Shown in pieces: positions 24,782-63,261 of a stretch of DNA of 64,000 nt. A program made the position numbers and the translations under genes. Position 1 is the stretch's first letter; every line of letters begins with the position of its first letter. The notes under the pieces were generated by a model that ran no database searches, was not told the origin of the DNA, and saw nothing but the letters and a program-made list of their open reading frames with translations. Source of the DNA: Acidobacteriota bacterium (GTDB taxonomy: Bacteria; Acidobacteriota; UBA6911; RPQK01; JAJDTT01); the NCBI GenBank assembly GCA_965222655.1, contig CBDCUP010000009.1, positions 391,991-455,990 on the forward strand, given 5' to 3'.

Positions 24782-25091
24782 CCGGTAAATGGGGAGGTGG
24801 GGACGTGGTTGGCACCTTCCGGATCCCAAATCTGCTCCCCGTTCGCTTGTCCATATAGTCGGCTGCAGTAGCAGAGGCCGTGGGAACTGTGGAAAACTCC
24901 GAGCGACATCGAACCGGGCCAGCAAGCCCGTGATACGGAGTTTTCCAAGCGCTGTGCGAACGGTGGAAAAACAACTGCGAGCACTTGCCAGTTCTCCTCC
25001 AGAACTACTTGTTTTTCCACGGTTTGCATAGTGCGGCAGTTTCCATGGCCTGCCTTTGACTGGCGGCACCTCCCCATTTACCGGATGAACC
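24776..25091. mobile_element. MITE copy B (316 bp)
   Basis: Same 24-bp TIRs; flanked by 9-bp direct repeat CTCTTTTTG. Confidence 0.8.
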
Positions 25092-25100
25092 TCTTTTTGT

Positions 25101-29787: not shown

Positions 29788-30080
29788 CTACCGCTAACTC
29801 CTAGCCCAGCAACATCTTAACTCAAAGATGTGACATCCCTAGGCCCATCAATCGCTCAATTTAGGTGACAATAAACGTAAAAATGGTCTGCTGCTCCTAC
29901 AAATTTTCCTGCCGCGCAGGCTCCTAGCACGCACCATAAGGTGCCCTGATCGACCCAGCGGATCTGTCGAACTCCGAAATCCCGGGCCTCCTTAGAGGAA
30001 GAGCGAGCCGGGATGTCATTTGTCGGTGTTTCAAGTAATGGAATGGGTTCGTGTTAGAATCGAAACGATCACCGGAAAAC

Positions 30081-42797: not shown

Positions 42798-42802
42798 TTC
42801 AA

Positions 42803-45947: not shown

Positions 45948-45957
45948 GCACACGCCG

Positions 45958-47636: not shown

Positions 47637-48565
47637 TCGAGCATTTGAAGGGCCGGGAACAGGCGCTTGCGCCCCTTGGATGGACCGGGCGGGAGGCGGA
47701 ATGGATTGCGCTGGTTTGTCTGCACAGCGGAGTTTTCACGCGGACGCAGTTCTGTTGCTACTTCAATACCTACCGGAAACAGGCGCACCGTTTCGTGAAG
47801 GCATTGATCGAACAACGGGCAGCGGTCGAAACCGATGTAATTGCCTTCAACGGCGGCGGAAAGACGTGCCGGATTTCAAGCAAGCCGCTTTACCGGGCGC
47901 TCGGAGTCGAGAATATCCGTCACCGGCGGAAAGCGGGAGCGCCGGTCGTCATGCGGCGGCTTCTCTCGCTTGATTTTATCCTGGAACATCCGGGCATGAA
48001 CTGGCTTCCGACCGAGGGGGAAAAGGTCGAATTTATTGAAGGGCTAGGGGTCCGTTCCAACCTCATTCCCCGGCGGATTTACTACGGCGCGGTGGCCGCT
48101 CAGAAACGCTATTTTGCGCTCAAGCTCCCCGTTGCCGGAGGCGATAAAACCGTCACCTTCGCCTATGTCGATCCTGGCCGGGAGAGCACCGGCGAACTCA
48201 ACTCATGGGGAGCGGCGCATGGACCGCTTTGGGATGCGATCCGCGCCAAGGGTCGGCGGGTGGAGGTGATCGCCATCGGCGCGGAACTGGACGCGGTTTT
48301 GCGGGCGGATCGGGTGCTACAGCTTTGGGCGTCGGCGGAGCCGGGGAAGGTGGCAACGGGGTTGACGGTGAAGCAGGAGATCAGGGCGATTAGTGATGCA
48401 ATCGACAATCGAGACATGGGATTTTTGGCACAGTACGGCGGGATGGGCGAGGCCGGGAAGCGGTACATGGCGCTTCAAAAACTTCCCGAAGCGGAGCTTG
48501 CGGAAGGGGTGTCGATTGACGACTATTCGACGTTCCGGGCAACCCGGTTTGCGGATCTGGCTTGA
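47633..48565 (+). CDS. Hypothetical protein with replication-relaxation-like N-terminal winged helix; candidate relaxase/mobilisation accessory
   Basis: LAPLGWTGREAEWIALVCLHSGVFTRTQF resembles Replic_Relax family N-terminus; lies directly upstream of hairpin-rich candidate oriT. Confidence 0.35.
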   Translation: MIEHLKGREQALAPLGWTGREAEWIALVCLHSGVFTRTQFCCYFNTYRKQAHRFVKALIEQRAAVETDVIAFNGGGKTCRISSKPLYRALGVENIRHRRKAGAPVVMRRLLSLDFILEHPGMNWLPTEGEKVEFIEGLGVRSNLIPRRIYYGAVAAQKRYFALKLPVAGGDKTVTFAYVDPGRESTGELNSWGAAHGPLWDAIRAKGRRVEVIAIGAELDAVLRADRVLQLWASAEPGKVATGLTVKQEIRAISDAIDNRDMGFLAQYGGMGEAGKRYMALQKLPEAELAEGVSIDDYSTFRATRFADLA

Positions 48566-48922
48566 GGGGCCAAATCCGGGGTGTTTTTCATGCCCCAAAG
48601 GACCGCTTATTTTTTGCCCCAGGGACAAAGGGGGGGGTGGGGCATAAAAAAGCGTGGGGGTGGGGCATCCATACACTCCTTGAACCGTTTTGTGTTCAGT
48701 GGTTTGCCCCTACTATTCGGCTTCCATAATGACGATACAGAAAAATCCGGGAAGACGATAGCGCCCCCCCCCGAAACGGGGGTTCCTACCGGCCCCGATA
48801 GCGGTCCTGCGGGGCAGTCCCCCTATCCGGCCCCAGGGGGTCGCTATCGTCGGTATTTATCCCTGCGGGAAGGCTCGGAAAAGACGCCCGACAGCGGCGG
48901 GCATTAAGCGGAGAATGGACCT
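48566..48922. promoter_or_regulatory. Candidate oriT / regulatory intergenic region with multiple inverted repeats
   Basis: ATGCCCC...GGGGCAT arms, CCCCCGAAACGGGGG hairpin, GATAGCGG...CGCTATC inverted repeat; only long non-coding stretch inside the T4SS cluster, upstream of virD4. Confidence 0.35.
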
Positions 48923-51229
48923 ATGGAATTGCGGAAGAACTGCCGGACACTGATCACGGCCTTGAACCGGTTTTGGCACCGGGAGGCCGGGCCGATGAAC
49001 TGGAAAAACCCCGTCCGCGTGGTGGCCTATATCGGCTGGGAAATTTTCAACGTCATGGCCTTCTTGGTGGGTGAATGGGTCCGGTACGGCGTCCGGGCCA
49101 GTCAGATTGTCCTGGCCATTCCCCCTACCGTGATCCTCTTTTCCGGGGGGGTTTGGTTCGCCGTTTGGAGCTTTGTCCGGCGTCCTTTTCCGGCGCTTGA
49201 GACGGTCCCTTTGCTCGATCTTTTGGAGTATCACAACCCGAATGTTTACAGTGCCGTGGTGATCTGGTACTACCTTTCTCCGCTGGTGGCGGTGATGCTG
49301 GCCGGATCTATTTCCCTGTCTATTTGGAAGGTTTGGATTGAGGCGCGAAAGCGCGATTTACTTCCCTTTGGGGCGCTCCCCGCTTGGCCTCTTTCCCCGA
49401 AGCAGCCCGGCCCCGAAATCGTCATCGGGGAAGTGCATCATCCGGTCGAAGCCAGGGAGATTTTCAACCCCGGATGGCTCACCATCCCGGAGCGCGGACT
49501 GTATACCGGCATTGCCATTTTTGGAGCGGTGGGGAGCGGCAAAACTTCGGCCTGTATGCACCCCTTCGCCAAGCAGCTACTCGGCTGGCAAGCGGACGAT
49601 CCGGAGCGGAGGCCAGCGGCGCTCATGCTCGAAGTGAAGGGAGATTTTTGCCATGACATTCGCTCGATCCTGGATAACGCGGGCCGGGGAGACGACTACC
49701 TGGAGATCGGAATGGGCGGCGTCTGGAAATGGAACCCCCTCTCCGCGTGGTGGCTCGATTCATACTCGCTGGCCTACACCGTTGCCAGCCTTCTCAATCA
49801 GCTTTTCGGCAAGGGCAAGGAGCCTTTTTGGCAGCAAGCCTATACCAATCTGGTGCGCTGGATTATCGAGCTTCACCGGGTGCTGCCGGAGCAGTGGGTG
49901 ACATTGCAGCAGGTCTATCAATGCGCCATTGACCCGGATCTTTTCGCGGCCAAGATCAAACAGGCCGAGGCATGGAGCGCGGAGCTAAACACCGGGGAGG
50001 TTTTCATTCCGTCCGAAATCTGGAAACCAAAAATGTACGATCTAGCCGATTGGGACATGAAGGCCACACCGGACGGGAAGGAAATGCAGACCGTCTACAC
50101 CGTGGACCTGGCTCATAAGCTAGAGGAATTGGAGATCAAGCCTCGTATCGTTTGGGAGCCCGGAGCCGGGGACGATGTGAGAGAGCGGGTGGCCACTGTG
50201 AAGCGGTGGTTTGACAACGACTGGCAAAAGCTGGACAACAAAATCAAATCCTCGATTGTCGAAGGCGTTTCCGTATTCCTGTCAATGTTCGATATGCCGG
50301 ACGTGGCGGCGGTGTTCTGTCCCCCGCCCCCGGAAGTGTCCGACGATCCCCGGCGCATCGGCCCGAAGGCCAGGGCCGCGATGCTGGCCGAGGCAAAGGC
50401 CCAGGCCAAGGGCCGGGGGGAGGCAAGCGGCGAGAAGAAGGGCAAGGAGGACCGGCAATGGCCCGCCCATACCATTGCCGAAAGGCCGCGCTATTTACCC
50501 CCGCTCTATGAATTGATCGAGGGCGGCAAGGTGCTGGCCTTGAACATGCCAGCCGGGAGCAACCCGGCGCTGGCCCGCGCCATCGGCGTGATGCTCAAAA
50601 ACGCATGGCTCCAAGCCTTGCTCATGCGACCGGCTCAGATGAAGGAATCCCCCACGGCCTACTTTCGGCCAGCGGTCTTTATCTGTGACGAGTACCAATC
50701 CTTCGCATCGGTGGGCGAGGACGATCCGACCGGCGATGAGAAATCCTTTGCCTTAACGCGGCAATGCCGCTGCATCCCGATTGTTGCGACCCAATCCATA
50801 TCCTCATTGCGGGCCGTGCTTGGCAGTTCGGAGGCGTGGCGGGCGCTCTTGCAGACGCTTCGCACCCGGATCTTCCTATCCTTGAGCGACGACGCCAGCG
50901 CCAAGATTGCATCGGAATTGTGCGGGCAGGTTGCCAAGATCAAAGGATCGTACACGATCAGCGAGACCTCGAAGCGGGCGGGCGTGTCCCCGCTCTCAGG
51001 CCGCGCCGGTGGATCGGGCGGCGGGAGCATCGGCGCAACCAAGTCTTTCCAGGAGCGCCGGGAGGCCGTCTTTCACCCGCGAGACTTCGCCTTGCTTGGA
51101 AACTGTCAGGCTATTTGCTTGCCCTATGACGGGGCGCAATCGCTGGAACCCAGGAGGGTTTATCTCAAACCTCATTACCTTCCCCTGGAACATTCTTATT
51201 GGAGAGCGAAGGAGGCCGGAGAGATATGA
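48923..51229 (+). CDS. virD4: Type IV coupling protein VirD4/TraG
   Basis: N-terminal TM helices; Walker A GAVGSGKT; TraG/TrwB family length; true start may be ATG at 48995. Confidence 0.85.
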   Translation: MELRKNCRTLITALNRFWHREAGPMNWKNPVRVVAYIGWEIFNVMAFLVGEWVRYGVRASQIVLAIPPTVILFSGGVWFAVWSFVRRPFPALETVPLLDLLEYHNPNVYSAVVIWYYLSPLVAVMLAGSISLSIWKVWIEARKRDLLPFGALPAWPLSPKQPGPEIVIGEVHHPVEAREIFNPGWLTIPERGLYTGIAIFGAVGSGKTSACMHPFAKQLLGWQADDPERRPAALMLEVKGDFCHDIRSILDNAGRGDDYLEIGMGGVWKWNPLSAWWLDSYSLAYTVASLLNQLFGKGKEPFWQQAYTNLVRWIIELHRVLPEQWVTLQQVYQCAIDPDLFAAKIKQAEAWSAELNTGEVFIPSEIWKPKMYDLADWDMKATPDGKEMQTVYTVDLAHKLEELEIKPRIVWEPGAGDDVRERVATVKRWFDNDWQKLDNKIKSSIVEGVSVFLSMFDMPDVAAVFCPPPPEVSDDPRRIGPKARAAMLAEAKAQAKGRGEASGEKKGKEDRQWPAHTIAERPRYLPPLYELIEGGKVLALNMPAGSNPALARAIGVMLKNAWLQALLMRPAQMKESPTAYFRPAVFICDEYQSFASVGEDDPTGDEKSFALTRQCRCIPIVATQSISSLRAVLGSSEAWRALLQTLRTRIFLSLSDDASAKIASELCGQVAKIKGSYTISETSKRAGVSPLSGRAGGSGGGSIGATKSFQERREAVFHPRDFALLGNCQAICLPYDGAQSLEPRRVYLKPHYLPLEHSYWRAKEAGEI

Positions 51230-52194
51230 GCAACGCGGCCAGTGGGCTGGCACACCTGAAACCTTTTTTGCCGGGGCTTGAACCCCTGCTGGAAGACGCG
51301 GAAGTGTCCGAGATCATGATTAACGGTCCCGGCAATGTTTGGATCGAGGCTAAGGGCCGGTTAACGGCTCATGCAGCGCCAGGGCTGGACGAATCGGCCT
51401 TGTTACGGGCGGCTATTCACATCGCCCGGCCTTTGGGCCTGGACCCCGCTTCAAATCCGATCATAGACGCCCGCCTGGATGATGGTTCCCGCGTGGCGAT
51501 CTGTGTTCCCCCGGCCAGCCCCCACGTTGCCATCACCATCCGGCGATTCGGCAAGCGGACCTTCAGCGCGGCGGATCTGGTCGAACAGAAAGCCCTACCG
51601 GAAAACGTCTTGAAAGCGGCGGAGCAGGTGTTGATGTCCCGCCGCAACATTCTGGTTTCCGGTGGGACCGGATCAGGCAAGACCACCTTGCTCAATGCCC
51701 TCATAGAACTACTACCCGTTGACGAGCGCATTGTGGCCATCGAGGACACGCTGGAGCTTCGCATCGGCCACTCGAATTGTGTCCGGTTTGAGGCCAGGGG
51801 CCTACAAGAGGGCGCGGTGACGATCCGCGATCTAGTACGCCATGCCTTGAGGCATCGACCGGATCATATCGTGGTGGGCGAGGTTCGAGGCGGCGAGGCG
51901 GCGGATCTACTGCAAGCTCTCAATACCGGACACGGTGGCTCACTCACGACCGTACACGCCAACAACGCGGAGAGCGCCCTGTCACGGCTTGCCAGTTGCG
52001 CCATGCAGGGCGGCGGGGAGTTGCCGTGGGAGGTGACTTGCCGGGGCGTGGTGGATGGGATTGCGATGGTAATTCACATGACGCGCCGGGAGGGACGGCG
52101 CTTTGTCGAGGAAGCCGCTTTTGTCAGTGGCTACGATGCGGGCCAGAACCAATGGGACATTGAGAGAATCACGGAGCGGGAGCTTCAACAATGA
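51226..52194 (+). CDS. virB11: T4SS ATPase VirB11/TrbB
   Basis: VSGGTGSGKTT Walker A, IVVGEVRGGEA, hexameric secretion ATPase family; ATGA overlap with virD4. Confidence 0.85.
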   Translation: MSNAASGLAHLKPFLPGLEPLLEDAEVSEIMINGPGNVWIEAKGRLTAHAAPGLDESALLRAAIHIARPLGLDPASNPIIDARLDDGSRVAICVPPASPHVAITIRRFGKRTFSAADLVEQKALPENVLKAAEQVLMSRRNILVSGGTGSGKTTLLNALIELLPVDERIVAIEDTLELRIGHSNCVRFEARGLQEGAVTIRDLVRHALRHRPDHIVVGEVRGGEAADLLQALNTGHGGSLTTVHANNAESALSRLASCAMQGGGELPWEVTCRGVVDGIAMVIHMTRREGRRFVEEAAFVSGYDAGQNQWDIERITERELQQ

Positions 52195-52668: not shown

Positions 52669-52995
52669 ATGACTGTTGAGGAGGTCGCTCAGTTTCTGCA
52701 TATGAGCCCGGGTTGGGTTTACAAACACTCGCATGAACTGGGCGCTGTGAAACTCGGGGGTTCTCTATTTTTCCCGAATAAGGAGGACCTCTATGAGTGT
52801 TTATTCAATAAAGGGCAAAGGCTGGAGGTACGATTTCACCCTCAAGGGCGAGAGGTACACTCAGGCTTGGTTCCCAACCAAAACGAAGGCCAAACAGGCA
52901 GAAGCAGAAACAAGAAAGGAGGTATTAGCACCACAGAAGAAAACTCAGACCCCAACCGACATGAACTTCTTGGAGTTGGTAAATCGGAAACTTGA
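52669..52995 (+). CDS. xis: Excisionase/Xis-like HTH (HTH_17/AlpA-type); 3' extent uncertain, overlaps integrase start
   Basis: MTVEEVAQFLHMSPGWVYKHSHELGAVKLGGSLFFPNKEDLYECL matches phage excisionase winged helix. Confidence 0.45.
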   Translation: MTVEEVAQFLHMSPGWVYKHSHELGAVKLGGSLFFPNKEDLYECLFNKGQRLEVRFHPQGREVHSGLVPNQNEGQTGRSRNKKGGISTTEENSDPNRHELLGVGKSET

Positions 52996-53892
52996 TGATG
53001 TAGAGGCTCGAAACAGCCTCAGATACTACAAGGACTTTCAATACATGGCGAGGCGATGGGCTCAGCTTTGGGGCGAGTTGAACTGTAGGCAGATAACCCG
53101 GGAAATGATCGAGCAGTTTGTCAAAAGACGGAAAAAGCAGGTTTCAGCACGCACCGCAAATAAGGAAATCCGCTATCTACGCTCAGTCTTTAACTTCGGG
53201 AAGAAAAAAAGTTGGCTGAGCACCAGCCCGGTTGATGGGATTGACTTCTTCTCGGTGGACAAACAGATACGGTACATCCCGACTGCTGAAGATGTGGAGA
53301 AAATCATCCTCCACGCTCGATCTGACAAGTGGTTGATGGCGCGGTATCCTGATGCTCCTGATTATCTTGAGACTTTGAGAGACACACTGGGACGCATAAG
53401 TGAGATCAATAGGTTGAAATGGGACGACGTGAACCTGGAAGAGAGATACTTAATCCTCTACACTCGCAAGATAGACGGGGGGCTTTCTCCCAGGAAGATC
53501 CCAATGACTCAAAGGCTGGACGAGATTCTTTCACTAAGGTATGCGCACAGAGACCCCAAAAAGCCTTGGGTGTTCTGGAATCCCCGTACGGGCCTACCCT
53601 ACAGAGATCGCAAGAGCATCATGAAGCGACTGTGTAAAGAAGCCAGAGTGCCGTACTTTCGTTTCCATTCACTGCGACATTCAAGTGCATCCCTCATGGA
53701 CAACAGCAACGTCCCAACGGGTGCGATCCAGAGAATCTTAGGCCATAGAAATCGGACCACGACGGAAATCTATCTGCACAGTCTGGGGGAAGGGGAAAGA
53801 GAAGCCATCGAAGCGTTCGAGGCCGTGAGAGAGGAAAAAGTCTCACACAGATCCACACACAGCGGTATGATGATTCCCCTGAAACCCTTGAT

Positions 53893-53902
<10 letters not shown>
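52793..53902 (+). CDS. int: Tyrosine recombinase/integrase of the conjugative element
   Basis: C-terminal R...HSLRHS...LGHRNRTTTEIYLH catalytic motifs; stop codon lies inside tRNA-Arg. Confidence 0.85.
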
Positions 53903-53970
<68 letters not shown>

Positions 53971-54018
53971 GATTTTTCAACGGGTTAGAGCAATCACCCT
54001 AACCGCCCCACGAGCCCA

Positions 54019-55092
54019 TCACCCGCTTTTCACCCGCTCGGTGTTCATGAACTCGCCCTCCTCTAGTCGCTGCGCGTCCCGGACGCTTCTTACAGCGTGA
54101 TCCGAGACAAAGAGGGCGTAGCGCATGGTGGTCTGGATGTCTCGGTGACCAAGGAGATCCTTGACGGTCCGAACATCGACGCCAAGGCGAAGCCAGTGGG
54201 TGGCTCGGAATCGGCGCAGATCGTGGAAGCCTACCCAATTCAGTCCGGCTCTCACGGCTCCGCGCTTGAACGCCTTCTCGGGATTGACCCAGCGCTGATT
54301 CGTCTGCGAACCGACAAAGACATAAGGGCAGTGGAGGTGCCGAACAAGACGTTGAAGCCAGTCCAGTGCGAACTCCGACAAGGGGATGTGACGGACCCGT
54401 TGGTTCTTGGTCCGTCCCACACTCAAGATCCGCTCGGGCACACTGATGCTATCCCATTCGAGAAATAGTGCCTCACTCTTCCGAATTCCCGTCTCCCCCA
54501 TGACTGCCACTAGCGCCGCAATCTCCAGCCGATCCATCGACTGCACGAGCAGGTGAAATTCCTCAACCGTAAGGATACGTCTTGGCACTTCTTGAACCTT
54601 GAGCATAGGAAAGCGAACCAGGGGATGGTAATCGATGACTCCCACCTCAAGAGCAAAGCTGAACATCTTCCGCAGAGCCGCAACGTCGCGGTTAACTGTG
54701 TTTGGAGAGACGTGCTTCACCCGACGCCGAACGTAACGATGCAGGTGGTGGCGGCGGAAGTCGACAAGAAGGATTCCCCCCAGTTCTCGGTTGAGGCTTC
54801 CGAAGGACAGTGCGTACCGATCCCAGGACCTCATCCGTACCTTGGCGTATTCTTCAAGAAAGGTGGCCGAAAAGTCGGACACGGTTGCGGCGTCTCTGGG
54901 ACTCGATCCCGTTAACGTTTCTCGAAGTTTGCGCCATGTGCCCTCGATGATGGCGGCCTCGATACGAGAGAGAGTCCGCTTGGCTACTTTGGGGTTGGGA
55001 TAGAATCGCCTGAACTCCTTTCCGTCCGGCCAGCGCTTCCTCACCTCGATCTTGGGAGCGCCCTTGCGATATTTGACCCGGTTAATTGCCAT
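54019..55092 (-). CDS. int: Tyrosine recombinase/integrase of second element
   Basis: GFHDLRRFRATHW...LLGHRDIQTTMRYA catalytic region; convergent on tRNA 3' end. Confidence 0.85.
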   Translation of the reverse strand: MAINRVKYRKGAPKIEVRKRWPDGKEFRRFYPNPKVAKRTLSRIEAAIIEGTWRKLRETLTGSSPRDAATVSDFSATFLEEYAKVRMRSWDRYALSFGSLNRELGGILLVDFRRHHLHRYVRRRVKHVSPNTVNRDVAALRKMFSFALEVGVIDYHPLVRFPMLKVQEVPRRILTVEEFHLLVQSMDRLEIAALVAVMGETGIRKSEALFLEWDSISVPERILSVGRTKNQRVRHIPLSEFALDWLQRLVRHLHCPYVFVGSQTNQRWVNPEKAFKRGAVRAGLNWVGFHDLRRFRATHWLRLGVDVRTVKDLLGHRDIQTTMRYALFVSDHAVRSVRDAQRLEEGEFMNTERVKSG

Positions 55093-55339
55093 GTTCCCTC
55101 CTTTCCTGACCGGGTCCTCCGTCCGGGTCAGGATACCACTCGTCCAGGGTGTCGATAAAACCGTTCAAGTCTTCCAAAGTGAAGACACGGTGGTTTTCCA
55201 GTCGACGGGCTCTGATCATGTTCAGATCGGCATATTTTCTTAGCGTTTGTTCGTGAACGCCCAGATAGCGGGCGGCGGCCTTGCTGCTGAACAGCCGCTG
55301 GTTGGGAACTTGGATCAGCGCAACTGGTTTCCCGATCAT
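55082..55339 (-). CDS. AlpA/MerR-type HTH (excisionase/transcriptional regulator)
   Basis: RLFSSKAAARYLGVHEQTLRKYADLNMIRARRLENHRVFTLEDLNGFI matches Phage_AlpA fold. Confidence 0.6.
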   Translation of the reverse strand: MIGKPVALIQVPNQRLFSSKAAARYLGVHEQTLRKYADLNMIRARRLENHRVFTLEDLNGFIDTLDEWYPDPDGGPGQERREHGN

Positions 55340-55417
55340 CGTTTACTGGTCCCGACCTACGCTTTGTCGTGTGATGAGGCCCTCTGTCTCTGCCAGTCCT
55401 GCAGCATCACAGCCCCC

Positions 55418-55795
55418 CTATCCCTCTAAATCGAAATCTAGGAGTCTCACAACGGGGGCTCTCCCTGGGTGTCGAGTAACTGAAACCAAACCCCTGCTCT
55501 CAAGCTGTGACAAGGCTCGATAACTCGAATGTCTGCTGACGCCGAAAAGATCCAAGGTCGCGTGAGTGAGACGGACACTCTTTGACTTCGTAAGCCCCGA
55601 CAAAAAACTCAGGGCGATCGCGACATGAAGCGACTTTCCGGGAAGTTTGGCCGCTGCCACCAACCAATCCAACTGGATTGGCCCCTTAAGGAACCTTCCC
55701 GTATTGCGCCGTATCCTCGAAGGAGATCTTCTCTTGGATTCCAGAGTCGTCTCAGACGTGAGCCGGAGAGAGTCCAGGTTGATCTGAGTCGACAT
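55418..55795 (-). CDS. Winged-helix DNA-binding protein (possible replication/regulatory)
   Basis: IQLDWLVAAAKLPGKSLHVAIALSFLSG...YRALSQLESRGLV. Confidence 0.4.
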   Translation of the reverse strand: MSTQINLDSLRLTSETTLESKRRSPSRIRRNTGRFLKGPIQLDWLVAAAKLPGKSLHVAIALSFLSGLTKSKSVRLTHATLDLFGVSRHSSYRALSQLESRGLVSVTRHPGRAPVVRLLDFDLEG

Positions 55796-55910
55796 TATTA
55801 TTAAGACTTCCTAAAGAGATACATATATAAGATGAGACGGGGGTGCACTGGTGCACAGGTATCGTTGCACCAGCGCTCAGGTCACCTGTGCGCTCATGCA
55901 CACCTTCTTT

Positions 55911-57640
55911 CTAAACTAGTTCCTTCATGATCTCCCAGACGGTCGTCCACATCTCCCTGCCCCGCTCGTCCATATAGCGCTCCGGATAACGGATCACCTT
56001 TGCCTCTGTCTGGATCTGAAAGCCATCAAGAACAGCCTCGCTCGCTTCTGTCATGGCCATCTGAGCTGCCGCAACGGCATCCTCCAATTCCGGCAGCGGA
56101 GCCTCGATCAAGATCGCATCATGAATAGGAGCGCAGACCCGTATGCCTCGCTCCGTTGCCAGGCAGCAAGCTAGACGTAGCATCTCCGCCCCGTTGGCCT
56201 GCATGGGGAAGTTCTGGAGAAACCGAGGATTCACTTCGTTTCCGACATGAATCTCCCAACCAAAGACGGTCCATAGCTTGCCGTGTAACATGGCGTAGTC
56301 GACCGCCGCTTCTGACCATCGCCAGAAAACGGGATAGGTCTGCCGGTGCATTTGCAGCAGCTCCCGTGCCTCGATCTCGGGCCGATCGATTTTCTGGGCC
56401 AAGGATTTGGCCCCCATTCCATATTGGACGGCAAGGACGCACTCTTTGAACATCTCCCGTTCCCAAGGGTGGCTTTCCTTGGTCGCATCAGGCGGCGCAA
56501 CTCCTACCTGCTTAGCCAAGGCTAGGTACGGATCTCCCGAAGTCGCGGCTTGTAGCATCGCCGGGTCACCCGAGAGCGCAGCTGCAATGCAATATTCCTG
56601 CTGAGCAAAATCAATGTGGGCCAGACCCCAGCCCGGTTCAGGCCGTATCAATCCGCGCAACCAGATCGCAGGACCAAAAATGAACTTGCTGTTGCTCGGT
56701 TGATTTCGCCCTGTGCGGGCCTGGAAGGCGGAGAGAAGACACCGATTGCGGCCGTCCTGCCCAATGGCTAGCTCCGACAGCCGCATCCGCGAAAGTGAGA
56801 TTCGAAGTTCTCGCAAAGGTGCAACTTCAGGATTGCTGCGAGCCATCTCACGGAAGATGTCGTCCTTGAGTGCCAGCCGACCGGATTTTAGCCTGGGCCA
56901 CGGCACCGCGTGTTTTTCAAGCCACTTTTCGAATCGATCGACCTTGAAGCTCAGGCCTTCGTATACCCCATATCTGGCGTCGATACGTCGGATCAACTTT
57001 TCTTGGATATGAGGCCAGTGCTCCCGCAGTGCCGAGTATGCTTCTGTGTCAATAGGAACCCCGCAGTGCTCCATGTGCGCAGCCGCCTTCATGTAGCGTC
57101 CCCGAAGAAGTGCCCTTGGAACATCCAGATGAGGGCTCATTCGATGCAGCAACTTATGAACTGCGACCACATCGCTCTCACAATAGTCTGTGAGCTGTTT
57201 ACGCTCCGATAGGCTCCAAGGACCTCCCCGTAGTGCCAGCTCACGCATATGCTCCTTCTCAGACGCTTCGATTCCGTCCAGACCAAAGGCCGTCAGAGCG
57301 CCGAGAAGGCCAAACCCGCACGGTGGAGTTTTGCCATTGACGAGGTTTCTGAATTCACAGAAGAGATCCAGTACATTAGCGGGGTGGGACCAGCCCAGAG
57401 CAAGGTGACAACCTAACTCAGCTGAGTCGTAGTAAGCGACAAGAAGGGAGTCCGGACCAACCGAGTATGGGGGTGCTGCAGAAGTGCTCAGATCGTCCTG
57501 CCAAAGTCGTATAGTCCGTCCGCTCCGTTCCTCCCTGGCCACAACACAGATCGGAGTGGGTTGCTCACCAGGCGGTGCGGAAAACTCAAAGTCTACGCAC
57601 CAGATTTCTTTGAATGCACTCAAAGGGGACAAGCTCAACG
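55911..57640 (-). CDS. Family A DNA polymerase with 3'-5' exonuclease domain (mobile-element encoded)
   Basis: Exo I VDFEFS, Exo II YYDSAEL; Pol motif A DFAQQEYCIAAALSGD, motif B K...QYGMG, motif C HDAILIE; probable TTG start overlapping upstream stop (TTGA); alternative ATG at 57740. Confidence 0.8.
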
Positions 57641-58306
57641 TACTCCTCTCAACTTCTGGATTGCTAAGTGATCCATGGATTGGATGAACTTGTCTTTGAA
57701 GGCGATCTCCAAGATCTGGCCCAAGCTCAAATCGGGCCATTCCGGTTCGGGGAGGTCTCCTGTGGCCGTAAACACCTCATAGGCCCCCAGCCGCATGTTG
57801 GCTACGATGCGTACCCAGTCTTTCATCGCGACCTGAGCGGCCTCCAGAGCCGACCGATGCCACTCGAGCTGACGTCCATCCGCACCGGGCAGCCTTACGG
57901 GATAGAGGAAGACAATCCCCTGCCGGTTAATGGCGGTGAAAAGGCACATGGGAACAATTTCTCCTGGCAGCTCCGACCATAAAGTGGGGTCTACGAGATA
58001 TGTCTCTCGGTCCTCCTTAAGCTCGAGGACTGCCGTTTCCAGCCGATAGGATTCGTCTGGTTGAACTCTGATAAACCATTGTCTGTCTGGCTTGCGAACC
58101 GGGATGGTGATGATCTTTTTCTTGACTCCAGCCGTTTCTGCAAAGTTCTGGGAGAGTCGGAGTTTCTCGATGTCAGGAATCCCTTCCTGCTCATCGCGGA
58201 TACTCCGCTGTCTGTCTCGATCGTCGCCCCCGTCGGGCGTCGGAGTGGTTGCGGTTTTCTTACCCTTGTTGGTCATGTTGTTTCTCCTTGAGTGCGGGTC
58301 GTTCAA
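57635..58306 (-). CDS. Hypothetical protein between PrimPol and PolA
   Basis: 223-aa ORF in operon; no recognisable family. Confidence 0.4.
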   Translation of the reverse strand: MNDPHSRRNNMTNKGKKTATTPTPDGGDDRDRQRSIRDEQEGIPDIEKLRLSQNFAETAGVKKKIITIPVRKPDRQWFIRVQPDESYRLETAVLELKEDRETYLVDPTLWSELPGEIVPMCLFTAINRQGIVFLYPVRLPGADGRQLEWHRSALEAAQVAMKDWVRIVANMRLGAYEVFTATGDLPEPEWPDLSLGQILEIAFKDKFIQSMDHLAIQKLRGVR

Positions 58307-58462
58307 TGATTAGGTTTTCTAGATCGCCCGACGGCAACCAAGCACCTTGAAACTCCGTTCAATTCAGATCCTTCCAAGGCCATAAGCCCGGCCTTCTTGA
58401 CTTCCTGAATCCCTTTACGCGTTCCATCAGACTCGTCCGGAAACATTGCCAGCATCTCTTTC

Positions 58463-60046
58463 TCAAACTCGGACAGCATCGGCAATCTGCTGTTTCTCTT
58501 TCGGGGGATCAGGCAGATCGTACTCCTTCAGGGAACCTTCTAGACGTGTGTCTACTTGAGAAATCGATCCAATCGATCCAATCGAGCCGCCAGCATGTAG
58601 GTACAGGAAGTTGCCGTCGATCTTGCGCCAGCCGATATGGGTGTAGACGTGCTGGGTTGGCACGTCGCCGGAAAGGTGTTGAATTGCCTCTCTCGCTCGA
58701 TCCTTGGCTCCATAACCGGCGGAAACAATGGCTCCCGCGCCAAGATTCTCCACGACCCATTGCATACCGGAAAACTGGTTGGCCGGGATAGTGAAGCGGC
58801 AAGGCTTGCCTCTCAACACAGCTTCGATCTCAAAGGATTGCCTGGTCTCTTCACCGTCGTCCTCCACCACGTCCCTGGCTATGCACGCTGTGAAGTTGGT
58901 TAGGACCACGGGTTTGACCCCATCATTTGTGGACTTGTTCCAGATGAGACCGTGATCCTTCACTCCGTAGATTGTATTCAGCGGATCACCGAACCCCTTA
59001 CTGACAAGGGCAGCAGCAGCAGCGCTGAAATTGCGAGAGTGGTTGAGATAGGTGTGGGCAGCAAACTTGTTATAGGCTCGCCCGGCTTCGAACGGATCGG
59101 CATTCGTGCTGAAAACATAAAGCAGATCACTTCCACCAAAGTTAGTGGTCGCTGAGACACCGGCGTCCTTACCTGGCCTGCGCCAGTACGTGGCTTCTCC
59201 GTTGTGCCCTACCTTCGCCCAGCCGAGCGGTTCCAGCACCTCTTCCCAGGTTGCCTTTCGGTTGAACGCATCACCCGGTCGGTTGCCGTTACGAGTGGAA
59301 GGGCCAGTGATGAGCCGCGCTGGCTCGACGTGCTCATTGAGGGCACGAGCACATTGCAGAAGAAGTTCTCTCTCAGCCGCACTGATGTTTGGAATACGTG
59401 TCAGATTCCCCTGGTCTAACACGTATGGCTTGTTCGAGGGATGACAGGCTTCAGGGGAGCCTGGAAGGAGAACATAGCCGCCCTCTCCCCTCGTCTCGAT
59501 CAGTACGACTGCTTTGCCATCCTCACCGGCCTGCCCTGCCAACTTTTGGTTCCGCTGCACACCATCTGGACATCTGTAGAAGGCGTGGCATCCCCCCCTC
59601 GGTGTCGAAACGAGTACCAGCCTGTCGAGAAGCTTTTCTTGCCCCTGCTCAAGGACCAGATAGAGCCACTTGGGAAACGCAGCACCACCAGCATCAAAAT
59701 CAAGGATTTCGAGGTTGCCGCTGACGCCTCCGGCAACTGTTCCAATCCCATTGCTACTGCCATTGCCAAACCAGTTTTTGAGCTCCTCATCAGTTGGCAA
59801 GTTCGATTGGTATGGTTTCCAAGGGATGAGAGGAGCTTTGCTGCCATCTGCTTTGATCGGAATCACTGACAGACCAGCGTCTACGAGTTGGCGTGCGAAA
59901 GAGAGCAGATCCGTGGTTTCGGTATGGGGAGTTTCATCCACAGTCGTCTGCCGCGAATCAACACTTTCCGAGATAGCTCCGGCCTTTAGGGACCACCGGG
60001 CTGATTCCCGAGGTGGAGACTCCTGCGGTGGGAACAGGTCGCTCAT
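58463..60046 (-). CDS. Bifunctional DNA primase/polymerase (PrimPol, archaeo-eukaryotic primase fold) with C-terminal extension lacking a Walker A helicase motif
   Basis: LSVIPIKADGSKAPLIPWKPYQ...LDFD...GGCHAFYR Prim-Pol N-terminal domain signature; ATGA overlap with upstream XRE gene. Confidence 0.75.
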   Translation of the reverse strand: MSDLFPPQESPPRESARWSLKAGAISESVDSRQTTVDETPHTETTDLLSFARQLVDAGLSVIPIKADGSKAPLIPWKPYQSNLPTDEELKNWFGNGSSNGIGTVAGGVSGNLEILDFDAGGAAFPKWLYLVLEQGQEKLLDRLVLVSTPRGGCHAFYRCPDGVQRNQKLAGQAGEDGKAVVLIETRGEGGYVLLPGSPEACHPSNKPYVLDQGNLTRIPNISAAERELLLQCARALNEHVEPARLITGPSTRNGNRPGDAFNRKATWEEVLEPLGWAKVGHNGEATYWRRPGKDAGVSATTNFGGSDLLYVFSTNADPFEAGRAYNKFAAHTYLNHSRNFSAAAAALVSKGFGDPLNTIYGVKDHGLIWNKSTNDGVKPVVLTNFTACIARDVVEDDGEETRQSFEIEAVLRGKPCRFTIPANQFSGMQWVVENLGAGAIVSAGYGAKDRAREAIQHLSGDVPTQHVYTHIGWRKIDGNFLYLHAGGSIGSIGSISQVDTRLEGSLKEYDLPDPPKEKQQIADAVRV

Positions 60047-60351
60047 GTTCTTCTTCTCCCGAGAGTGAACTCGTCCCTCTTTCCCCGCAATCGAAGGTCG
60101 ATCGTACACGCGCCATCTCGATCAAGAACCGCCGCCGCCTCGTCTTCCGTCACTTCCTCCTGCAGTTCTTCAGGACGGAGCCTCAGCGCCTGTCCCAGCT
60201 TTTGACTCTGCCCTGGATAAGGACGCATCCGAAGAGTTTCAATCCGTGAGACGTCAGCCATGCCGACATGCGCAATCACGGCCAGCTCCTGCTGACTCCA
60301 TCGCCGCTTCAGGCGTTCCAGCTTCATTCGTGAAATCTTGTTCATGCTCAT
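60043..60351 (-). CDS. XRE-family HTH transcriptional regulator
   Basis: MKLERLKRRWSQQELAVIAHVGMADVSRIE HTH_3 pattern; first gene of minus-strand operon, divergent from 60397 gene. Confidence 0.6.
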   Translation of the reverse strand: MSMNKISRMKLERLKRRWSQQELAVIAHVGMADVSRIETLRMRPYPGQSQKLGQALRLRPEELQEEVTEDEAAAVLDRDGACTIDLRLRGKRDEFTLGRRRT

Positions 60352-60396
60352 ACCCTAGGTTAGTATTTAACAGAACTACTTTTCAGGACGTTAAGA

Positions 60397-61356
60397 ATGA
60401 ACCAAACAGAATTGGAACAAAATTTGAGAATGACCCTCCCTCTGAACGACATGAAATTCTTGAAGGATGCCTTAAGTGAGTATTTAAAAGGTTCCTGCAA
60501 GTACGAATTCAGTGAGGAGGACGTGCGGCAGGTACGGGTACTGGCGGCAAGAAAATCTGCCGCTCCAACCAAAGAAACCAAGGAAACTGGGGAAGAGGTG
60601 ATCTTTTTCGGTCCACCCGGCGTCCGACAGGAGATCCTGAGCAAGAGGATATGCGAGGCGTACGAAGGGCAGGTTGAGAGAGTCAGAACAATGGCATGCC
60701 GCTTAACCCGTACCTTGTCCCGGCAAGAGAGTGTAGACTGGCTTGACCAACAACAAAAACGTGATCGCCAAAGTGCAGACGACGAATATCCGCTCTCGAT
60801 GAGCGAAGTGTCAGAGGAGCTTCCGCCGCCTCTTGTCGTCTATAACTTGCCAGGATCAGACGGAAAGCGTCTGCCTTGGCGGATCCAGCCAATCGCTCTA
60901 GGTTCGATCCTGGCAGATCTATCCCGGCAGGTTGAATTGCTGTTTTTGCAGACAGGTTTCGAGCGAGAAGACATTGCCAGATGGATTCTAGAAGGGGAAA
61001 GACCGACTATCTACCGTCATCGAACTATCGGGCATCAACGGTACCCATTGGGAGCCGGAGGACGGATGGCGTGGGTCACGCTTGAGCTCAGAGCTTCGGA
61101 CATTACCTGGAAGGAACTTTGGGAAGTCTACAGAGAGATCAGATCTGCGACCTATACAAGACGACAACCACCAAGTGACCTCCACGTCCGAATCTATGAG
61201 ATTGTCGAAGAGTGGGGTGGCATTCCAGCGAAGGGGAAGGGAAAGTTTTGGAACAAGGTAAGAGCCCGACTCCTCCAGGAGAAACAGTTCAGAAGAATCC
61301 CTAAATGGCAAGGAATCAGAAGGGCATACCACAACCTCATCGATTCAGTTCCGTGA
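60397..61356 (+). CDS. Hypothetical protein, divergently transcribed from XRE regulator
   Basis: 319-aa ORF, about 50% GC; no family recognised. Confidence 0.4.
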   Translation: MNQTELEQNLRMTLPLNDMKFLKDALSEYLKGSCKYEFSEEDVRQVRVLAARKSAAPTKETKETGEEVIFFGPPGVRQEILSKRICEAYEGQVERVRTMACRLTRTLSRQESVDWLDQQQKRDRQSADDEYPLSMSEVSEELPPPLVVYNLPGSDGKRLPWRIQPIALGSILADLSRQVELLFLQTGFEREDIARWILEGERPTIYRHRTIGHQRYPLGAGGRMAWVTLELRASDITWKELWEVYREIRSATYTRRQPPSDLHVRIYEIVEEWGGIPAKGKGKFWNKVRARLLQEKQFRRIPKWQGIRRAYHNLIDSVP

Positions 61357-61411
61357 GTCCAATCTTGACGCTCTCGTCGGCGAGTTCCCAGATCCTTTTG
61401 GCAGCGATAAT

Positions 61412-61843
61412 TCATCTGATGAGTGTTGCAGCACTCGTCTCTCTAGCGTCTTGTCTGTCAGGCTCTGGCAGCAGCCTGCCTATGCCACGCCCGATCGCAT
61501 GTAGCGTCTTCTGCTCTTTGATGTTCTCTCTGAGCACCGCGAGGATGCCCCCAACGAGCGTCGAGATCTCTGCAGCGCTGACCATCATTTCGCTATCTTG
61601 CATACGCTTGTTCTCGCTCTCGACGAGACTCTTCTTGCGATCCATCCACTCACCGAGATTGTGCCAGATGTCTTGCTCGTCGTGGATCTCAGCGAGCAGG
61701 TGCTCGAACTGATTGAGCACGTCGAGAAAGCCGTCGCTGTCGAGTCCCTTCGCTACAGCGGCTTTGGCGTTGCGAACGCTCTTGGCCGAAGGGAGACTGC
61801 TAAACTCCGAGATCATGAAAAGAAGAACCTTCCTGAAGAAGAC
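61412..61843 (-). CDS. Hypothetical protein (start uncertain; ORF tool extends to 61978, which overlaps the next gene)
   Basis: Acidic helical ORF; internal Met chosen to limit overlap. Confidence 0.25.
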   Translation of the reverse strand, partial: VFFRKVLLFMISEFSSLPSAKSVRNAKAAVAKGLDSDGFLDVLNQFEHLLAEIHDEQDIWHNLGEWMDRKKSLVESENKRMQDSEMMVSAAEISTLVGGILAVLRENIKEQKTLHAIGRGIGRLLPEPDRQDARETSAATLIR

Positions 61844-63008
61844 GACCGGTGCCGGTGGAGTCGTGCTTTCCTCGCTGGCAATTGGGACTGGATTCTCCAC
61901 CAGCGAATTGTTGTCCGCAAACCGATCCTCGGAGGCGTCCGATAAAGGAAAGAGTCCCATCAGAGTCGGGGTCATCACCCAAAAGGGCGGGCCTCACCTG
62001 AGTATCTACCTCAAGGCCCTGGCGGCGAGTGAAGGTTTGGCGGGGTTGGCCATTTCGGATGAGAGTGGTGCAACCTTCGAGCAGGCCGAGAGCTCGCTGG
62101 GCCAGCGGTTTCCGAATCTAGGGAAGTTTCGAGACTATCGCAACATGATCGAAAAGTTCAAGCCGCAGATGGTGCTCATCTCTCTGGAGGCACATCTCGC
62201 ACCGGATCGAATCCGGCGGGCACTGGAAGGAAACTGCAGCGTCCTGGCCGAGAAGCCGGCTTGTGTGCGGGCGGAAGATTTCGAGCCTCTGGTAGAGCTG
62301 GCCGAATCCAGGAATCTACACCTGATGCTGGCTCTTCCCGGACGGCTGCATCCCTCGGCGATCAAGGCGAAGGAGTTGATCCGTTCTGGATTTTTGGGAA
62401 AGCTCTATGGCACCCAGGTATTCCAGGTCAAGGACCAGACGCGCTTGACCCGTGTCAGCTATCACGACTCCTGGTTCGCCTTCAAGAACAAGGCCGGAGG
62501 AGGGCATCTGATCTGGTTGGGAATACACAACTTGGATCTGATTCAGTACCTGGCCGACGATCCCATCGCCAAGGTGTCCGCAGTTTGCAGGAATGTAGGA
62601 GGTCAACCGGTCGAAATCGAGGACGCGGAAGCATTGGCGTTCCAGTTCAAGAGCGGAATGGTTGGCACCTTTCATGGTGGCTACTATCTCGAGCAGGGGG
62701 GGACCCAATCCGCACTGACCATTTGGGGCTCGAAGGGTTGGCTTCGAATGAGTGCTTCTCGACACAAATCCGAGTCGCAGCAGCGGTTGGATTGGCAGTC
62801 GACACACCCCGATGCGCCGGAAGGGATCCAAACGATCCCTCTCCCAACTGGCATCAACAGCTACCAACTCCTGGTGCAGGCAGCGATCAAGGCCTCGGCA
62901 GGGACGGAAGAGGCCCCTCTAACAGGTCGGGATTGCCTACAGGTGCTCCGAGTGATCTTCGGTGCCTATCGCTCCTCGGAGACCGGACGAGAGCAGAGCA
63001 TCGGCTGA
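61815..63008 (+). CDS. Gfo/Idh/MocA-family oxidoreductase with Tat signal
   Basis: MKRRTFLKKTTGAGGVVLSS Tat motif; IRVGVI Rossmann; EKP motif; paralogous in type to 23090-24781. Confidence 0.75.
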   Translation: MKRRTFLKKTTGAGGVVLSSLAIGTGFSTSELLSANRSSEASDKGKSPIRVGVITQKGGPHLSIYLKALAASEGLAGLAISDESGATFEQAESSLGQRFPNLGKFRDYRNMIEKFKPQMVLISLEAHLAPDRIRRALEGNCSVLAEKPACVRAEDFEPLVELAESRNLHLMLALPGRLHPSAIKAKELIRSGFLGKLYGTQVFQVKDQTRLTRVSYHDSWFAFKNKAGGGHLIWLGIHNLDLIQYLADDPIAKVSAVCRNVGGQPVEIEDAEALAFQFKSGMVGTFHGGYYLEQGGTQSALTIWGSKGWLRMSASRHKSESQQRLDWQSTHPDAPEGIQTIPLPTGINSYQLLVQAAIKASAGTEEAPLTGRDCLQVLRVIFGAYRSSETGREQSIG

Positions 63009-63075
63009 TCGCCTGTGCCCTTTCGTCAGGAAAGCATTACGCTCTCTCCAACCGAAAGTTCTGTAAGATACTCCC

Positions 63076-63118
<43 letters not shown>

Positions 63119-63261
63119 GAGAACCTTTGAGTTTCACAACCTCCTCAAAACCAACAAGTTGTTGAGATCAAGTAAGTTCCGTTTAGCAGATTTTTTACGA
63201 CTTCCTCTATTTTGGTAGATTTTGGACGGATTTTCTCACACGGATTCTCACACAGAATTGC

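Follow-up and report, generated by a model that had tools for sequence, protein, structure and literature searches.

A mosaic island with its own family-A DNA polymerase at a tRNA-Arg gene of an Acidobacteriota bacterium and its putative family of small integrative elements

Results

Gene content of the polymerase island

A stretch of 64,000 nt from an Acidobacteriota bacterium (assembly GCA_965222655.1, contig CBDCUP010000009.1, positions 391,991 to 455,990; hereafter the window) harbors a compact island directly behind a tRNA-Arg(TCT) gene, in which a DNA polymerase of family A (PolA) is encoded next to a tyrosine integrase. In a preliminary description of this DNA, seven minus-strand genes were proposed, encoding an integrase (Int), an HTH_17 protein, a small winged-helix protein (wHTH), PolA, a protein of unknown family (here U223), a primase-polymerase (PrimPol) and an XRE-type protein, and all seven were confirmed. 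The extent proposed at that time held only in part: the integrase end at the tRNA-Arg was confirmed, whereas the true far end lies at ~61786 and thus past 60396. The island proper therefore comprises 53971-61786 (~7.8 kb) and includes two further genes of 319 and 134 aa. The following features were annotated, with coordinates of the window.

53893-53970, plus strand: tRNA-Arg(TCT), intact (ARAGORN; Rfam, 73 bits); marks the island's left end, the int stop codon being 48 nt away
54019-55092, minus strand: tyrosine integrase (Int), 357 aa (PF00589, 8.4e-26; phrog_1, 2.7e-57)
55082-55339, minus strand: HTH_17/MerR-type excisionase-like protein, 85 aa (PF12728, 7.8e-07; phrog_66 excisionase; TIGR01764)
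55418-55795, minus strand: small winged-helix protein (wHTH), 125 aa (weak HTH_Crp_2/GntR matches only)
55796-55910, minus strand: conserved non-coding block of 115 nt between the PolA stop and the wHTH start
55911-57638, minus strand: family-A DNA polymerase (PolA) with 3'-5' exonuclease, 575 aa from TTG (PF00476, 1.5e-21)
57635-58306, minus strand: U223, conserved unknown protein, 213 aa from the ATG at 58276 or 223 aa from TTG
58303-58479, minus strand: open reading frame (ORF) of 58 aa, spanning the junction of the truncated PrimPol gene and U223 (gene calls in contigs L085-L091)
58463-60046, minus strand: PrimPol with an AEP domain, 527 aa, 3'-truncated (PF09250, 8.6e-19; longer ORF 58463-60109)
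60043-60351, minus strand: XRE-type HTH protein, 102 aa (HTH_31/HTH_3 below the Pfam cut-offs; phrog_3 repressor, 3.8e-4)
60397-61356, plus strand: divergent gene of 319 aa within the island, between XRE and the duplication boundary (ORF and gene calls)
61412-61816, minus strand: 134-aa ORF, its 5' end running into a duplicated host segment (gene calls; junction sequence)

Several of these genes overlap. The excisionase-like gene and the start of int share 11 nt, and the two four-nucleotide overlaps reported earlier were both found in the sequence: ATGA at 60043-60046 holds the XRE stop and the PrimPol ATG, and TTGA at 57635-57638 holds the U223 stop and an in-frame TTG of PolA, which AGGAG precedes at a distance of 5 nt. 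For the 319-aa protein no family match was obtained in Pfam, PHROGs, NCBIfam or PADLOC. A 24-nt imperfect direct repeat lies with one copy (60350-60373, ATACCCTAGGTTAGTATTTAACAG) in the divergent promoter region between this gene and XRE and the other (60467-60490, ATGCCTTAAGTGAGTATTTAAAAG) at the start of the 319-aa gene; the two copies may form an operator pair for the XRE protein.

Domain and PHROG scans detected no capsid or packaging genes within or beside the island. T4SS (type IV secretion system), coupling protein and relaxase genes were not found by Pfam in 53971-61786, nor was a recognizable oriT; helicase and serine recombinase genes were likewise absent from the island and not recurrent in its relatives. 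Neither Cas1 nor PolB was detected in the island with Pfam, PHROGs and NCBIfam, leaving PolA and the AEP protein as its sole polymerases. PADLOC yielded generic PolA, HTH and MerR-like matches to the island proteins and no defense system, Rfam identified tRNA and no other known non-coding RNA in the window, and scans for promoters and terminators stayed at chance level. The picture of a compact, integrase-bearing, tRNA-linked island with a proofreading family-A polymerase and no structural genes was thereby upheld.

A conserved U223-PolA-wHTH core in related loci

PolA has a very large number of relatives. At least 7,997 homologues with E<=1e-10 were obtained among 8,000 candidates scored, of which the 120th best was 63% identical. 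In a scan of one genome per species, PolA matches were confirmed in 518 species-representative genomes. The best 80 of these 518 showed 55-79% identity and came, by record title, from ~15 phyla, the groups represented being Acidobacteriota, Planctomycetota, Alpha-, Beta- and Gammaproteobacteria, Nitrospinota, Desulfobacterota, Myxococcota, Bdellovibrionota, Elusimicrobiota, Kiritimatiellia, Patescibacteria, Binatia, Dadabacteria and Zixibacteria.

Subsequently, 84 loci from ~15 phyla were compared. U223 was present in 83 of the 84, and a wHTH gene followed directly downstream of PolA in 80. The gene order was always U223-PolA-wHTH, with U223 and PolA coupled through their stop and start codons. 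When the neighboring ORFs were clustered all against all, only four recurrent clusters emerged, namely PolA, wHTH, U223 and a tyrosine integrase. Among the 37 loci with enough flanking sequence, a hidden Markov model of integrases detected a tyrosine recombinase within 4.5 kb in 29, on the same strand in all but one of these (28/29), and situated immediately behind wHTH or a few genes ahead of U223. Where the integrase lay downstream, a tRNA gene often came next (Arg, Cys, Gly, Lys, Asn, Phe, Ser or Thr). The conserved core is thus U223, PolA and wHTH in this order, usually accompanied by a same-strand tyrosine integrase and often by a tRNA gene.

Three relatives are delimited by repeats of their target tRNA. 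L084 measures 7.1 kb and is bounded by a 44-nt repeat of tRNA-Lys reaching from the anticodon loop to the 3' end; L025 (10.1 kb) is bounded by a 42-nt tRNA-Pro repeat and L039 (12.5 kb) by a 20-nt repeat at tRNA-Arg. The gene map of L084 consists of a divergent integrase, two unknown genes, U223, PolA, wHTH and one further unknown gene, and nothing else. On one Bryobacterales chromosome there are two copies, with 92% identity between the cores and ~64% between the integrase regions, and other genomes contain two divergent copies each. In Bradyrhizobium hipponense aSej3 (L078) the core stands alone on a contig of 6,127 bp without terminal overlap, which could represent a repeat-bounded or an episomal copy. 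Another cultured carrier is Archangium gephyra PVMSAZ (L028).

For the family as a whole, the likely explanation is an integrative mobile element with a backbone of Int and a PolA-based replication module. This family, apparently very large and undescribed, would comprise integrative elements of 7-12.5 kb and extend over many phyla of bacteria. In the literature searched in full text, an integrase-linked PolA/U223/wHTH element is undescribed, although absence there is not proof of novelty. To this extent the earlier suggestion of an undescribed class survives, as a mobile-element family; the word class goes too far, as integrative elements with replication modules are known, among them SCCmec, pipolins, tycheposons and phage-inducible chromosomal islands.

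These loci also bear on a viral origin, in which the genes would be the replication module of a prophage or phage satellite. Island proteins did match PHROG polymerase and primase families, and ~25 contigs with the same core occur in the viral collection IMG/VR. These contigs are, however, mostly 4-18 kb long and have the same Int-core layout. Capsid, terminase, portal and tail genes were missing in and around the island, and when 137 flanking proteins from 25 loci were compared with PHROG, transposases, integrases and insertion sequence (IS) helper genes were found, and terminase, capsid and portal genes did not recur. No close PolA relative was present in 50,697 phage and 72,556 plasmid records, the best places listed being 22-27% identical with none covering 80% of the query. 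A 60-kb IMG/VR contig (L113) does encode a 44%-identical PolA at 6033-8006, without detectable U223 and next to sigma-factor-like genes, a terminase-like gene and a tail-fiber-like gene; a sister lineage of PolA seems to live in true phages. As the extended sequence around the island showed no capsid or terminase gene, the island does not appear as a prophage replication module, and the satellite proposed in the preliminary description lacks packaging, capsid and interference genes. Overall, we regard a viral origin as extremely unlikely.

PolA is an intact proofreading polymerase that fits the CHEAP subfamily

The ATG-extended ORF of PolA occupies 55911-57740. Starting from the TTG in the overlap at 57635-57638 the protein has 575 aa, while gene callers begin at the next TTG two codons on (57630-57632; 573 aa). 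Residues 1-37 of the extended protein were modeled as disorder (predicted local distance difference test score, pLDDT, ~26), and homologues covered 92-94% of the query with alignments beginning at ~residue 37-43. Because of this disordered N-terminus and the onset of the homologue alignments, either the overlapping TTG or the one at 57630-57632 is likely the real start.

The earlier claim of intact exonuclease and polymerase motifs was borne out (PF00476, 1.5e-21). In a family alignment of 22 sequences, the exonuclease residues D50/E52 (ExoI, DxE), E108 and Y186/D190 (ExoIII, Yx3D) were invariant, as were the polymerase residues D377, T343-G344-R345, R428/K432/L436/Y440 and H540/D541. Alignment to Klenow suggests that the ExoII carboxylate is Glu. 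The AlphaFold 2 model (pLDDT 84.6) superposed over its full length on the Klenow-type large fragments Klentaq, Bst and Klenow, with Foldseek TM-scores of 0.6-0.69. Position 3 of motif B is occupied by an invariant Leu (L436), four residues past K432, and the model contains a long terminal helix (H592-608). Betaproteobacterial relatives of PolA are L061, L082 and L083. In contig L085, which carries the same island, a tandem duplication of ~150 bp in the PolA 3' end (17813-17995, corresponding to 55940-56093 of the window) splits the gene into parts of 545 and 77 aa; this may be a genuine inactivating mutation or an error of the long-read assembly.

The curated NCBIfam models nearest to PolA belong to the actinobacterial exo/pol (APEX-type) family. 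Among described PolA subfamilies, its features fit CHEAP, which is cluster 15 of Czernecki et al. 2023 (PMC10201439), a fit judged by the described features. The hallmarks of CHEAP are a Leu at B3, an active exonuclease and an extra C-terminal helix behind a bent thumb (PMC10201439), and the fit follows from the Leu at motif-B position 3 and the conserved exonuclease of PolA and from its modeled long C-terminal helix, a putative counterpart of the extra helix. Like CHEAP, the protein consists of exonuclease and polymerase (~575 aa) with the DxE and all polymerase motifs and is not the host Pol I. The CHEAP enzyme of I. dechloratans (WP_151124575) was shown to be a very active proofreading polymerase, and CHEAP is the subfamily closest to CCPol of SCCmec (PMC10201439). 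It was published without partners or genomic context, whereas the PolA described here belongs to an integrase-linked three-gene module.

CHEAP was classed as a cellular auxiliary that does not replace Pol I (PMC10201439), and accordingly U223-PolA-wHTH might be a cellular accessory cassette, that is, cargo of assorted islands serving host repair, damage tolerance or defense. Besides this classification of the best-fitting subfamily, the PADLOC model RTasPolA matched PolA (2.2e-17, a generic PolA match), and replication of the element is putative. Against such a role, the core and Int make up almost the whole of the 7.1-kb L084, and the other repeat-bounded relatives are small too. Order and strand of the core relative to Int are fixed, the distribution is patchy over ~15 phyla with 55-65% identity between phyla, genomes may hold multiple divergent copies, and PADLOC detected no defense-system partner genes. 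A host cassette is therefore improbable. As part of a mobile element, PolA would give CHEAP, a subfamily characterized biochemically but called cellular, a genomic and biological context.

U223, wHTH and the non-coding block behind PolA

U223 had no match in Pfam, PHROGs, NCBIfam or PADLOC. With a U223 profile, 5,014 clusters at 50% identity were obtained, 3,657 of them with E<=1e-10, and the homologues are always stand-alone proteins of ~190-340 aa. The protein is beta-rich and resembles an OB-fold; it is proposed to act as a single-stranded DNA-binding or polymerase accessory factor. For wHTH, a role as an origin- or operator-binding protein is proposed.

Between PolA and wHTH, the non-coding block contains three 17-bp repeats of ACCTGNGCRCNNNNGCA, two direct (55844-55860 and 55866-55882) and one inverted (55884-55900). 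Three exact matches to ACCTGNGCRCNNNNGCA exist in the window, all within the block, and two more with one mismatch, giving 5 in total compared to 0.85 expected. A CACCCCCGT box (~55835-55843) and an AT-rich tract (55796-55833) follow. In relatives from many phyla, PolA is likewise followed by element-specific or shared repeats, a CACCCGT-type box and then an AT-rich tract. Alignment of the PolA-wHTH block from 14 loci revealed invariant columns, and a crude box-plus-AT pattern was present in 22 of 79 loci versus 4.7% of background windows. Built like an iteron-type origin or like an operator with autoregulation, the block is a candidate origin of replication and/or operator.

The PrimPol segment is a passenger from another type of element

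In the preliminary description, the pairing of PrimPol with PolA was taken as the hallmark of the island. By tblastn, PrimPol, XRE and the 319-aa gene were found in none of the 84 related loci, and the neighborhood comparison instead identifies U223 and wHTH as the true partners of PolA. For the same reason, control by XRE, as proposed earlier, could apply at most to this mosaic copy.

PrimPol itself was only partly as described. Its AEP catalytic domain was confirmed and is complete (PF09250, 8.6e-19), but the helicase half is absent. The closest full-length homologues have ~920 aa and combine Prim-Pol with DUF927. PrimPol of the window is collinear with residues 2-494 of the 923-aa protein P0246, a PrimPol-DUF927 helicase, at 50% identity, and the alignment ends at residue 494, just before the Walker A motif GPTGEGKS. 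Likewise, phrog_19930 was matched over positions 5-331 of 865 only. Elsewhere in the 64-kb window no helicase remnant was detected, and other short PrimPol homologues turned out to be IS-disrupted genes. A gap of 156 nt and the 58-aa junction ORF separate PrimPol from the core. From the collinear stop before Walker A, the lack of a helicase remnant and the IS-broken nature of the short homologues it follows that PrimPol is a passenger. The XRE-PrimPol segment is a fragment of another element, of the PrimPol-helicase type, that has been joined to the PolA backbone. It is homologous to the N-terminal half of the proteins of P4-like and PrimPol-helicase islands, in which AEP is combined with DUF927, DUF3987 or D5-type helicases, and differs from these by the missing helicase half; no other member of the PolA family carries it.

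It could still be argued that PrimPol makes primers which PolA extends, the pairing constituting a new class comparable to pipolins and casposons. In favor of this, the two genes form uninterrupted ORFs within a single gene string, nothing of the AEP catalytic domain is missing, and fusions of AEP with PolA exist in another PolA subfamily, cluster 8 (PMC10201439). Against this stand the absence of PrimPol from all 84 relatives, which largely refutes such a pair at the family level, its truncation before the helicase, and the gap and junction ORF between PrimPol and the core. We consider a PrimPol-PolA partnership very unlikely.

Island boundaries and a duplicated host segment

The tRNA-Arg gene is shared by the island and an integrative and conjugative element (ICE) in tandem, and the island is followed by a duplicated host segment.

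1-53933: ICE of at least 54 kb, integrated in tRNA-Arg(TCT), with T4SS genes at 40371-52194
52793-53902, plus strand: integrase of the ICE (PF00589, 2.8e-24), its stop overlapping the 5' end of the tRNA
61787-63118, plus strand: right copy of a 1,333-bp direct repeat (repeat search; Pfam)
63119-63256, plus strand: 138-bp arm after the right half-tRNA, also the left end of the ICE in ICE-carrying strains

The integrases of island and ICE share 27% identity only. When the last 25 nt of the tRNA were searched in the window with up to 3 mismatches, the tRNA itself was the only hit, and exact matches of at least 8 nt between 53925-54025 and 60300-61900 were limited to one chance 8-mer. The tRNA 5' half recurs, as far as the anticodon loop, 9,185 bp downstream at 63078-63118, directly after a gene for a GFO/IDH/MocA oxidoreductase with a twin-arginine translocation (TAT) signal. 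This half-tRNA is part of the 1,333-bp repeat, which contains 28 bp upstream of the oxidoreductase, the whole 397-codon ORF (61815-63008), a spacer and the tRNA 5' half. In ICE-free strains the left repeat copy lies directly 5' of the intact tRNA, so that the two copies, 99.9% identical in L089, flank the island. The junction at 61786/61787 probably truncates a gene, of which the 134-aa ORF is what is left.

Near-identical contigs from five metagenome samples were retrieved by exact-protein look-up. Those without the ICE (L085/L089, L088 and L091) have the oxidoreductase, the intact tRNA and then the same island; L086 and L087 carry the ICE like the window, and L090 represents the left ICE junction. 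Apart from long-read artefacts, the island genes are 100% identical in all six near-clonal contigs. Since contigs that are otherwise identical either have or lack it, the ICE has inserted recently, with a length of at least 54 kb, and all of window 1-53892 consists of inserted DNA. Compared with the ICE-free contigs, the 5' half of the tRNA-Arg in the window is an ICE-borne variant (CCAGG versus CTGG); the ICE thus supplies its own tRNA 5' half, which places the crossover in or before the anticodon loop. In one short-read contig of 2.9x coverage (L092) the left and right flanks meet with no island in between; the contig represents an island-free variant or else a collapse of the assembly across the repeat.

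Beyond the right half-tRNA, L090 and the window are 99.8% identical over 1,470 bp including the 138-bp arm and then diverge. A TCTCACACGGATTCTCACACAG motif of the arm recurs just upstream of the tRNA, at the integrase end of the ICE. Given that the same 138-bp arm forms the left ICE end, the sequence at 63119-63256 appears to be a relic attL-type junction of an ICE-family element. The arm was also compared with L089 (20637-20773) and L090 (11305-11442): it is of the ICE type in ICE-carrying strains and a ~75%-similar variant in ICE-free ones, which suggests gene conversion or a further cycle of integration and excision.

The duplication would be best explained by a circular island that carried 1.33 kb of flanking chromosome and re-inserted within the homology in a Campbell-type event. 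Tandem duplication or unequal crossover was also considered for the 1.33-kb repeat and rejected, as these need a prior repeat or predict a second island copy, and such a copy was not seen. In summary of its history, this tRNA-Arg locus accumulates elements in tandem (the ICE, the PolA island and the relic junction) together with a host-gene duplication.

The state of this copy allows two further explanations. It may be a decayed, immobile remnant, a dead chimera of a PolA element and a PrimPol-helicase element that is lost only by recombination between the 1.33-kb repeats, an explanation compatible with that given for the family. PrimPol is cut before its helicase domain, the duplication junction cuts the 134-aa gene, the tRNA 3' end is not repeated in the manner of an attR, all related contigs carry the island in fixed and identical form, and the flank join in L092 is what repeat recombination would give. 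On the other hand, the ORFs of the core, int and xis are unbroken and their catalytic residues invariant, the near-identity of the 1.33-kb repeats implies that the arrangement is recent, and L092, at its low coverage, is maybe a collapsed assembly. A dead remnant is possible, though not what we would expect.

Alternatively, the island could be a mobilizable hitch-hiker that travels with the ICE, its PolA module serving only establishment or maintenance after transfer. Such a role is in line with its tandem position beside a T4SS-bearing ICE at the same tRNA, with gain and loss of the ICE among otherwise identical strains, which shows it to be active in the population, with the relic ICE-family junction at the far island end, and with the finding that islands without relaxase or T4SS commonly ride ICEs (bioRxiv 10.64898/2026.01.13.699239). 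Yet the island has neither relaxase nor recognizable oriT, it is the same in ICE-free strains, and no conjugation genes recur beside the core in the 84 relatives. Dependence on the ICE of this kind is rather unlikely.

Proposed replication of the element

Taken together, window 53971-61786 is probably an integrated copy of a small mobile element. With similar confidence, its backbone is proposed to consist of the tyrosine integrase, the excisionase and a three-gene replication module, formed by U223, PolA and wHTH with the repeat/AT-rich block; the anatomy of the element, its distribution and its linkage to integrases and tRNA genes are documented by the comparisons above, whereas its mobility and replication are putative. 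Int and Xis would excise it as a circle. The wHTH protein would bind the repeats beside the AT-rich tract, which would act as origin or operator, and the element's PolA, aided by U223, would carry out the initiating DNA synthesis at this tract. The primer might be a transcript or R-loop that emerges from the PolA gene, as in ColE1, or priming might occur de novo as in CCPol-MP. The copy would then be completed by the host helicase and replisome or by strand displacement through PolA. Spread from cell to cell may occur via other vehicles, for example the conjugative element at the same tRNA-Arg (compare the iOriT hitchers of bioRxiv 10.64898/2026.01.13.699239). The XRE-PrimPol segment would have come from a different PrimPol-helicase element and lost its helicase half at the joint.

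Several results weigh against an active, self-replicating element. The island copy is without a classical attR, and it is fixed and identical in the six near-clonal contigs. For this element no circular form, attP junction or copy-number excess was seen. Most tRNA-adjacent relatives had no detectable repeat within 10 kb (blastn-short, 12 relatives), and none of 31 whole-contig loci was circular or had terminal overlaps. In a Pfam search of 32 proteins encoded upstream of U223, primase and helicase domains were missing, the hits including a single sigma-54 AAA+ protein and a single weak match to E1-helicase; with no helicase or primase recognized in typical members, autonomous replication is something we infer. 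The identification of PolA with CHEAP is putative and based on described features, the wHTH assignment rests on sub-threshold Pfam matches, and the repeat block could be only a promoter or operator. With its truncated PrimPol, its truncated far-end gene, no classical attR and fixation in the sampled population, the activity of this mosaic copy is uncertain.

By analogy to known systems, U223 and PolA might even form a self-sufficient initiator-replicase, in which U223 would turn the proofreading PolA into a primase-polymerase at the wHTH-bound iteron/AT-rich site, in the way that MP acts on CCPol. This proposal is tentative and its truth doubtful. If it holds, the family would be the family-A counterpart of pipolins, with thousands of lineages in ~15 phyla and no primase or helicase of its own, and would form a widespread class of minimal self-synthesizing integrative elements; the CHEAP polymerases published as cellular would be replicases of these elements.

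Comparison with known integrative elements

Judged by analogy, the element would work most like the CCPol-MP-Cch2 system of SCCmec and more loosely like pipolins, tycheposons and phage-inducible chromosomal islands (PICI). The lack of PolB and Cas1, of a serine recombinase and Cch2, and of packaging genes shows that it is not a member of the SCCmec, pipolin, casposon or PICI types.

In SCCmec, CCPol and the small protein MP form a primase-polymerase, which acts with the Cch2 helicase and a specific site beside the operon (Bebel et al. 2020, PMC7581432). Both systems are small integrative elements in which an A-family polymerase is accompanied by a small beta-rich partner of no known family and a specific DNA site beside the operon. 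However, CCPol has no exonuclease domain whereas PolA keeps it, and the partner U223 precedes the polymerase, has ~210 aa and an OB-like fold, and is likened to MP without demonstrated homology. A Cch2-type helicase is missing, wHTH being in its place, and a tyrosine recombinase at tRNA genes is used instead of the Ccr serine recombinases at rlmH.

With pipolins and casposons, the element shares the integrated state and the possession of its own replicative DNA polymerase and recombinase; pipolins, too, are often flanked by repeats and located at tRNA genes. The polymerase is of family A and not piPolB or pPolB, Cas1 is absent, and the elements are far smaller than typical pipolins. Primer independence is a feature of pipolins and only putative for PolA.

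Tycheposons and PICI-like islands are similarly small and tRNA-targeting; one of their ends bears a tyrosine recombinase that faces inward, and their replication module is compact (2-4 kb). They were described in marine cyanobacteria with a recombinase lineage of their own, and their replication modules are mostly of the primase/helicase type (Hackl et al.). Packaging and interference genes are missing here. In the tycheposon preprint, polymerases are listed among the hallmark replication genes of tRNA-targeting elements (bioRxiv 10.1101/2020.12.28.424599), and the general idea is therefore not new.

In ColE1, a family-A polymerase extends a transcript-derived primer at a defined origin. In the element, the PolA gene is followed directly, in its transcriptional direction, by the origin-like block. 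ColE1 uses the host Pol I with RNA II and RNase H, whereas no such RNA is known for the element, and the comparison is an analogy only.

If correctly interpreted, the family adds an abundant and phylogenetically broad member to the few integrative elements with their own DNA polymerase (pipolins, casposons, SCCmec). Two uncharacterized conserved proteins and a conserved DNA site would be candidates for a compact three-part replication system, maybe useful as a broad-host-range minimal replicon or as a source of enzymes.

The neighboring ICE

The ICE encodes VirB4, VirB9/CagX, VirB10/TrbI, VirB6/TrbL, VirB8, a coupling protein, VirB11, a nuclease, an HTH_17 protein and ArdC. Just upstream of its T4SS genes, an ArdC-type anti-restriction/metallopeptidase gene and an N6/N4 DNA methylase gene (36520-37614 and 39396-40367) flank a tRNA-Thr(GGT) at 39065-39151, which is a typical leading-region arrangement. 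At the left end (L090), AbiE, SIR2 and HerA-like genes are located.

Transposase genes of the IS66 family (3872-5341), the Mutator family (14134-15318) and the DDE_Tnp_1_4 type (28330-29787) are scattered over the ICE, and the G+C content along 1-36 kb swings from ~50% to 69%. These G+C jumps indicate a mosaic of nested insertions. A repeat of ~320-330 bp is present three times and in both orientations (13497-13815, 24775-25103 and 31170-31492), is 95-99% identical to a segment of L087 outside the window, and may be a miniature inverted-repeat transposable element or an IS end. Ankyrin-repeat proteins are unusual in bacteria outside host-associated lineages; two of them are encoded in the inserted DNA, at 30051-31175 and 32722-33552.

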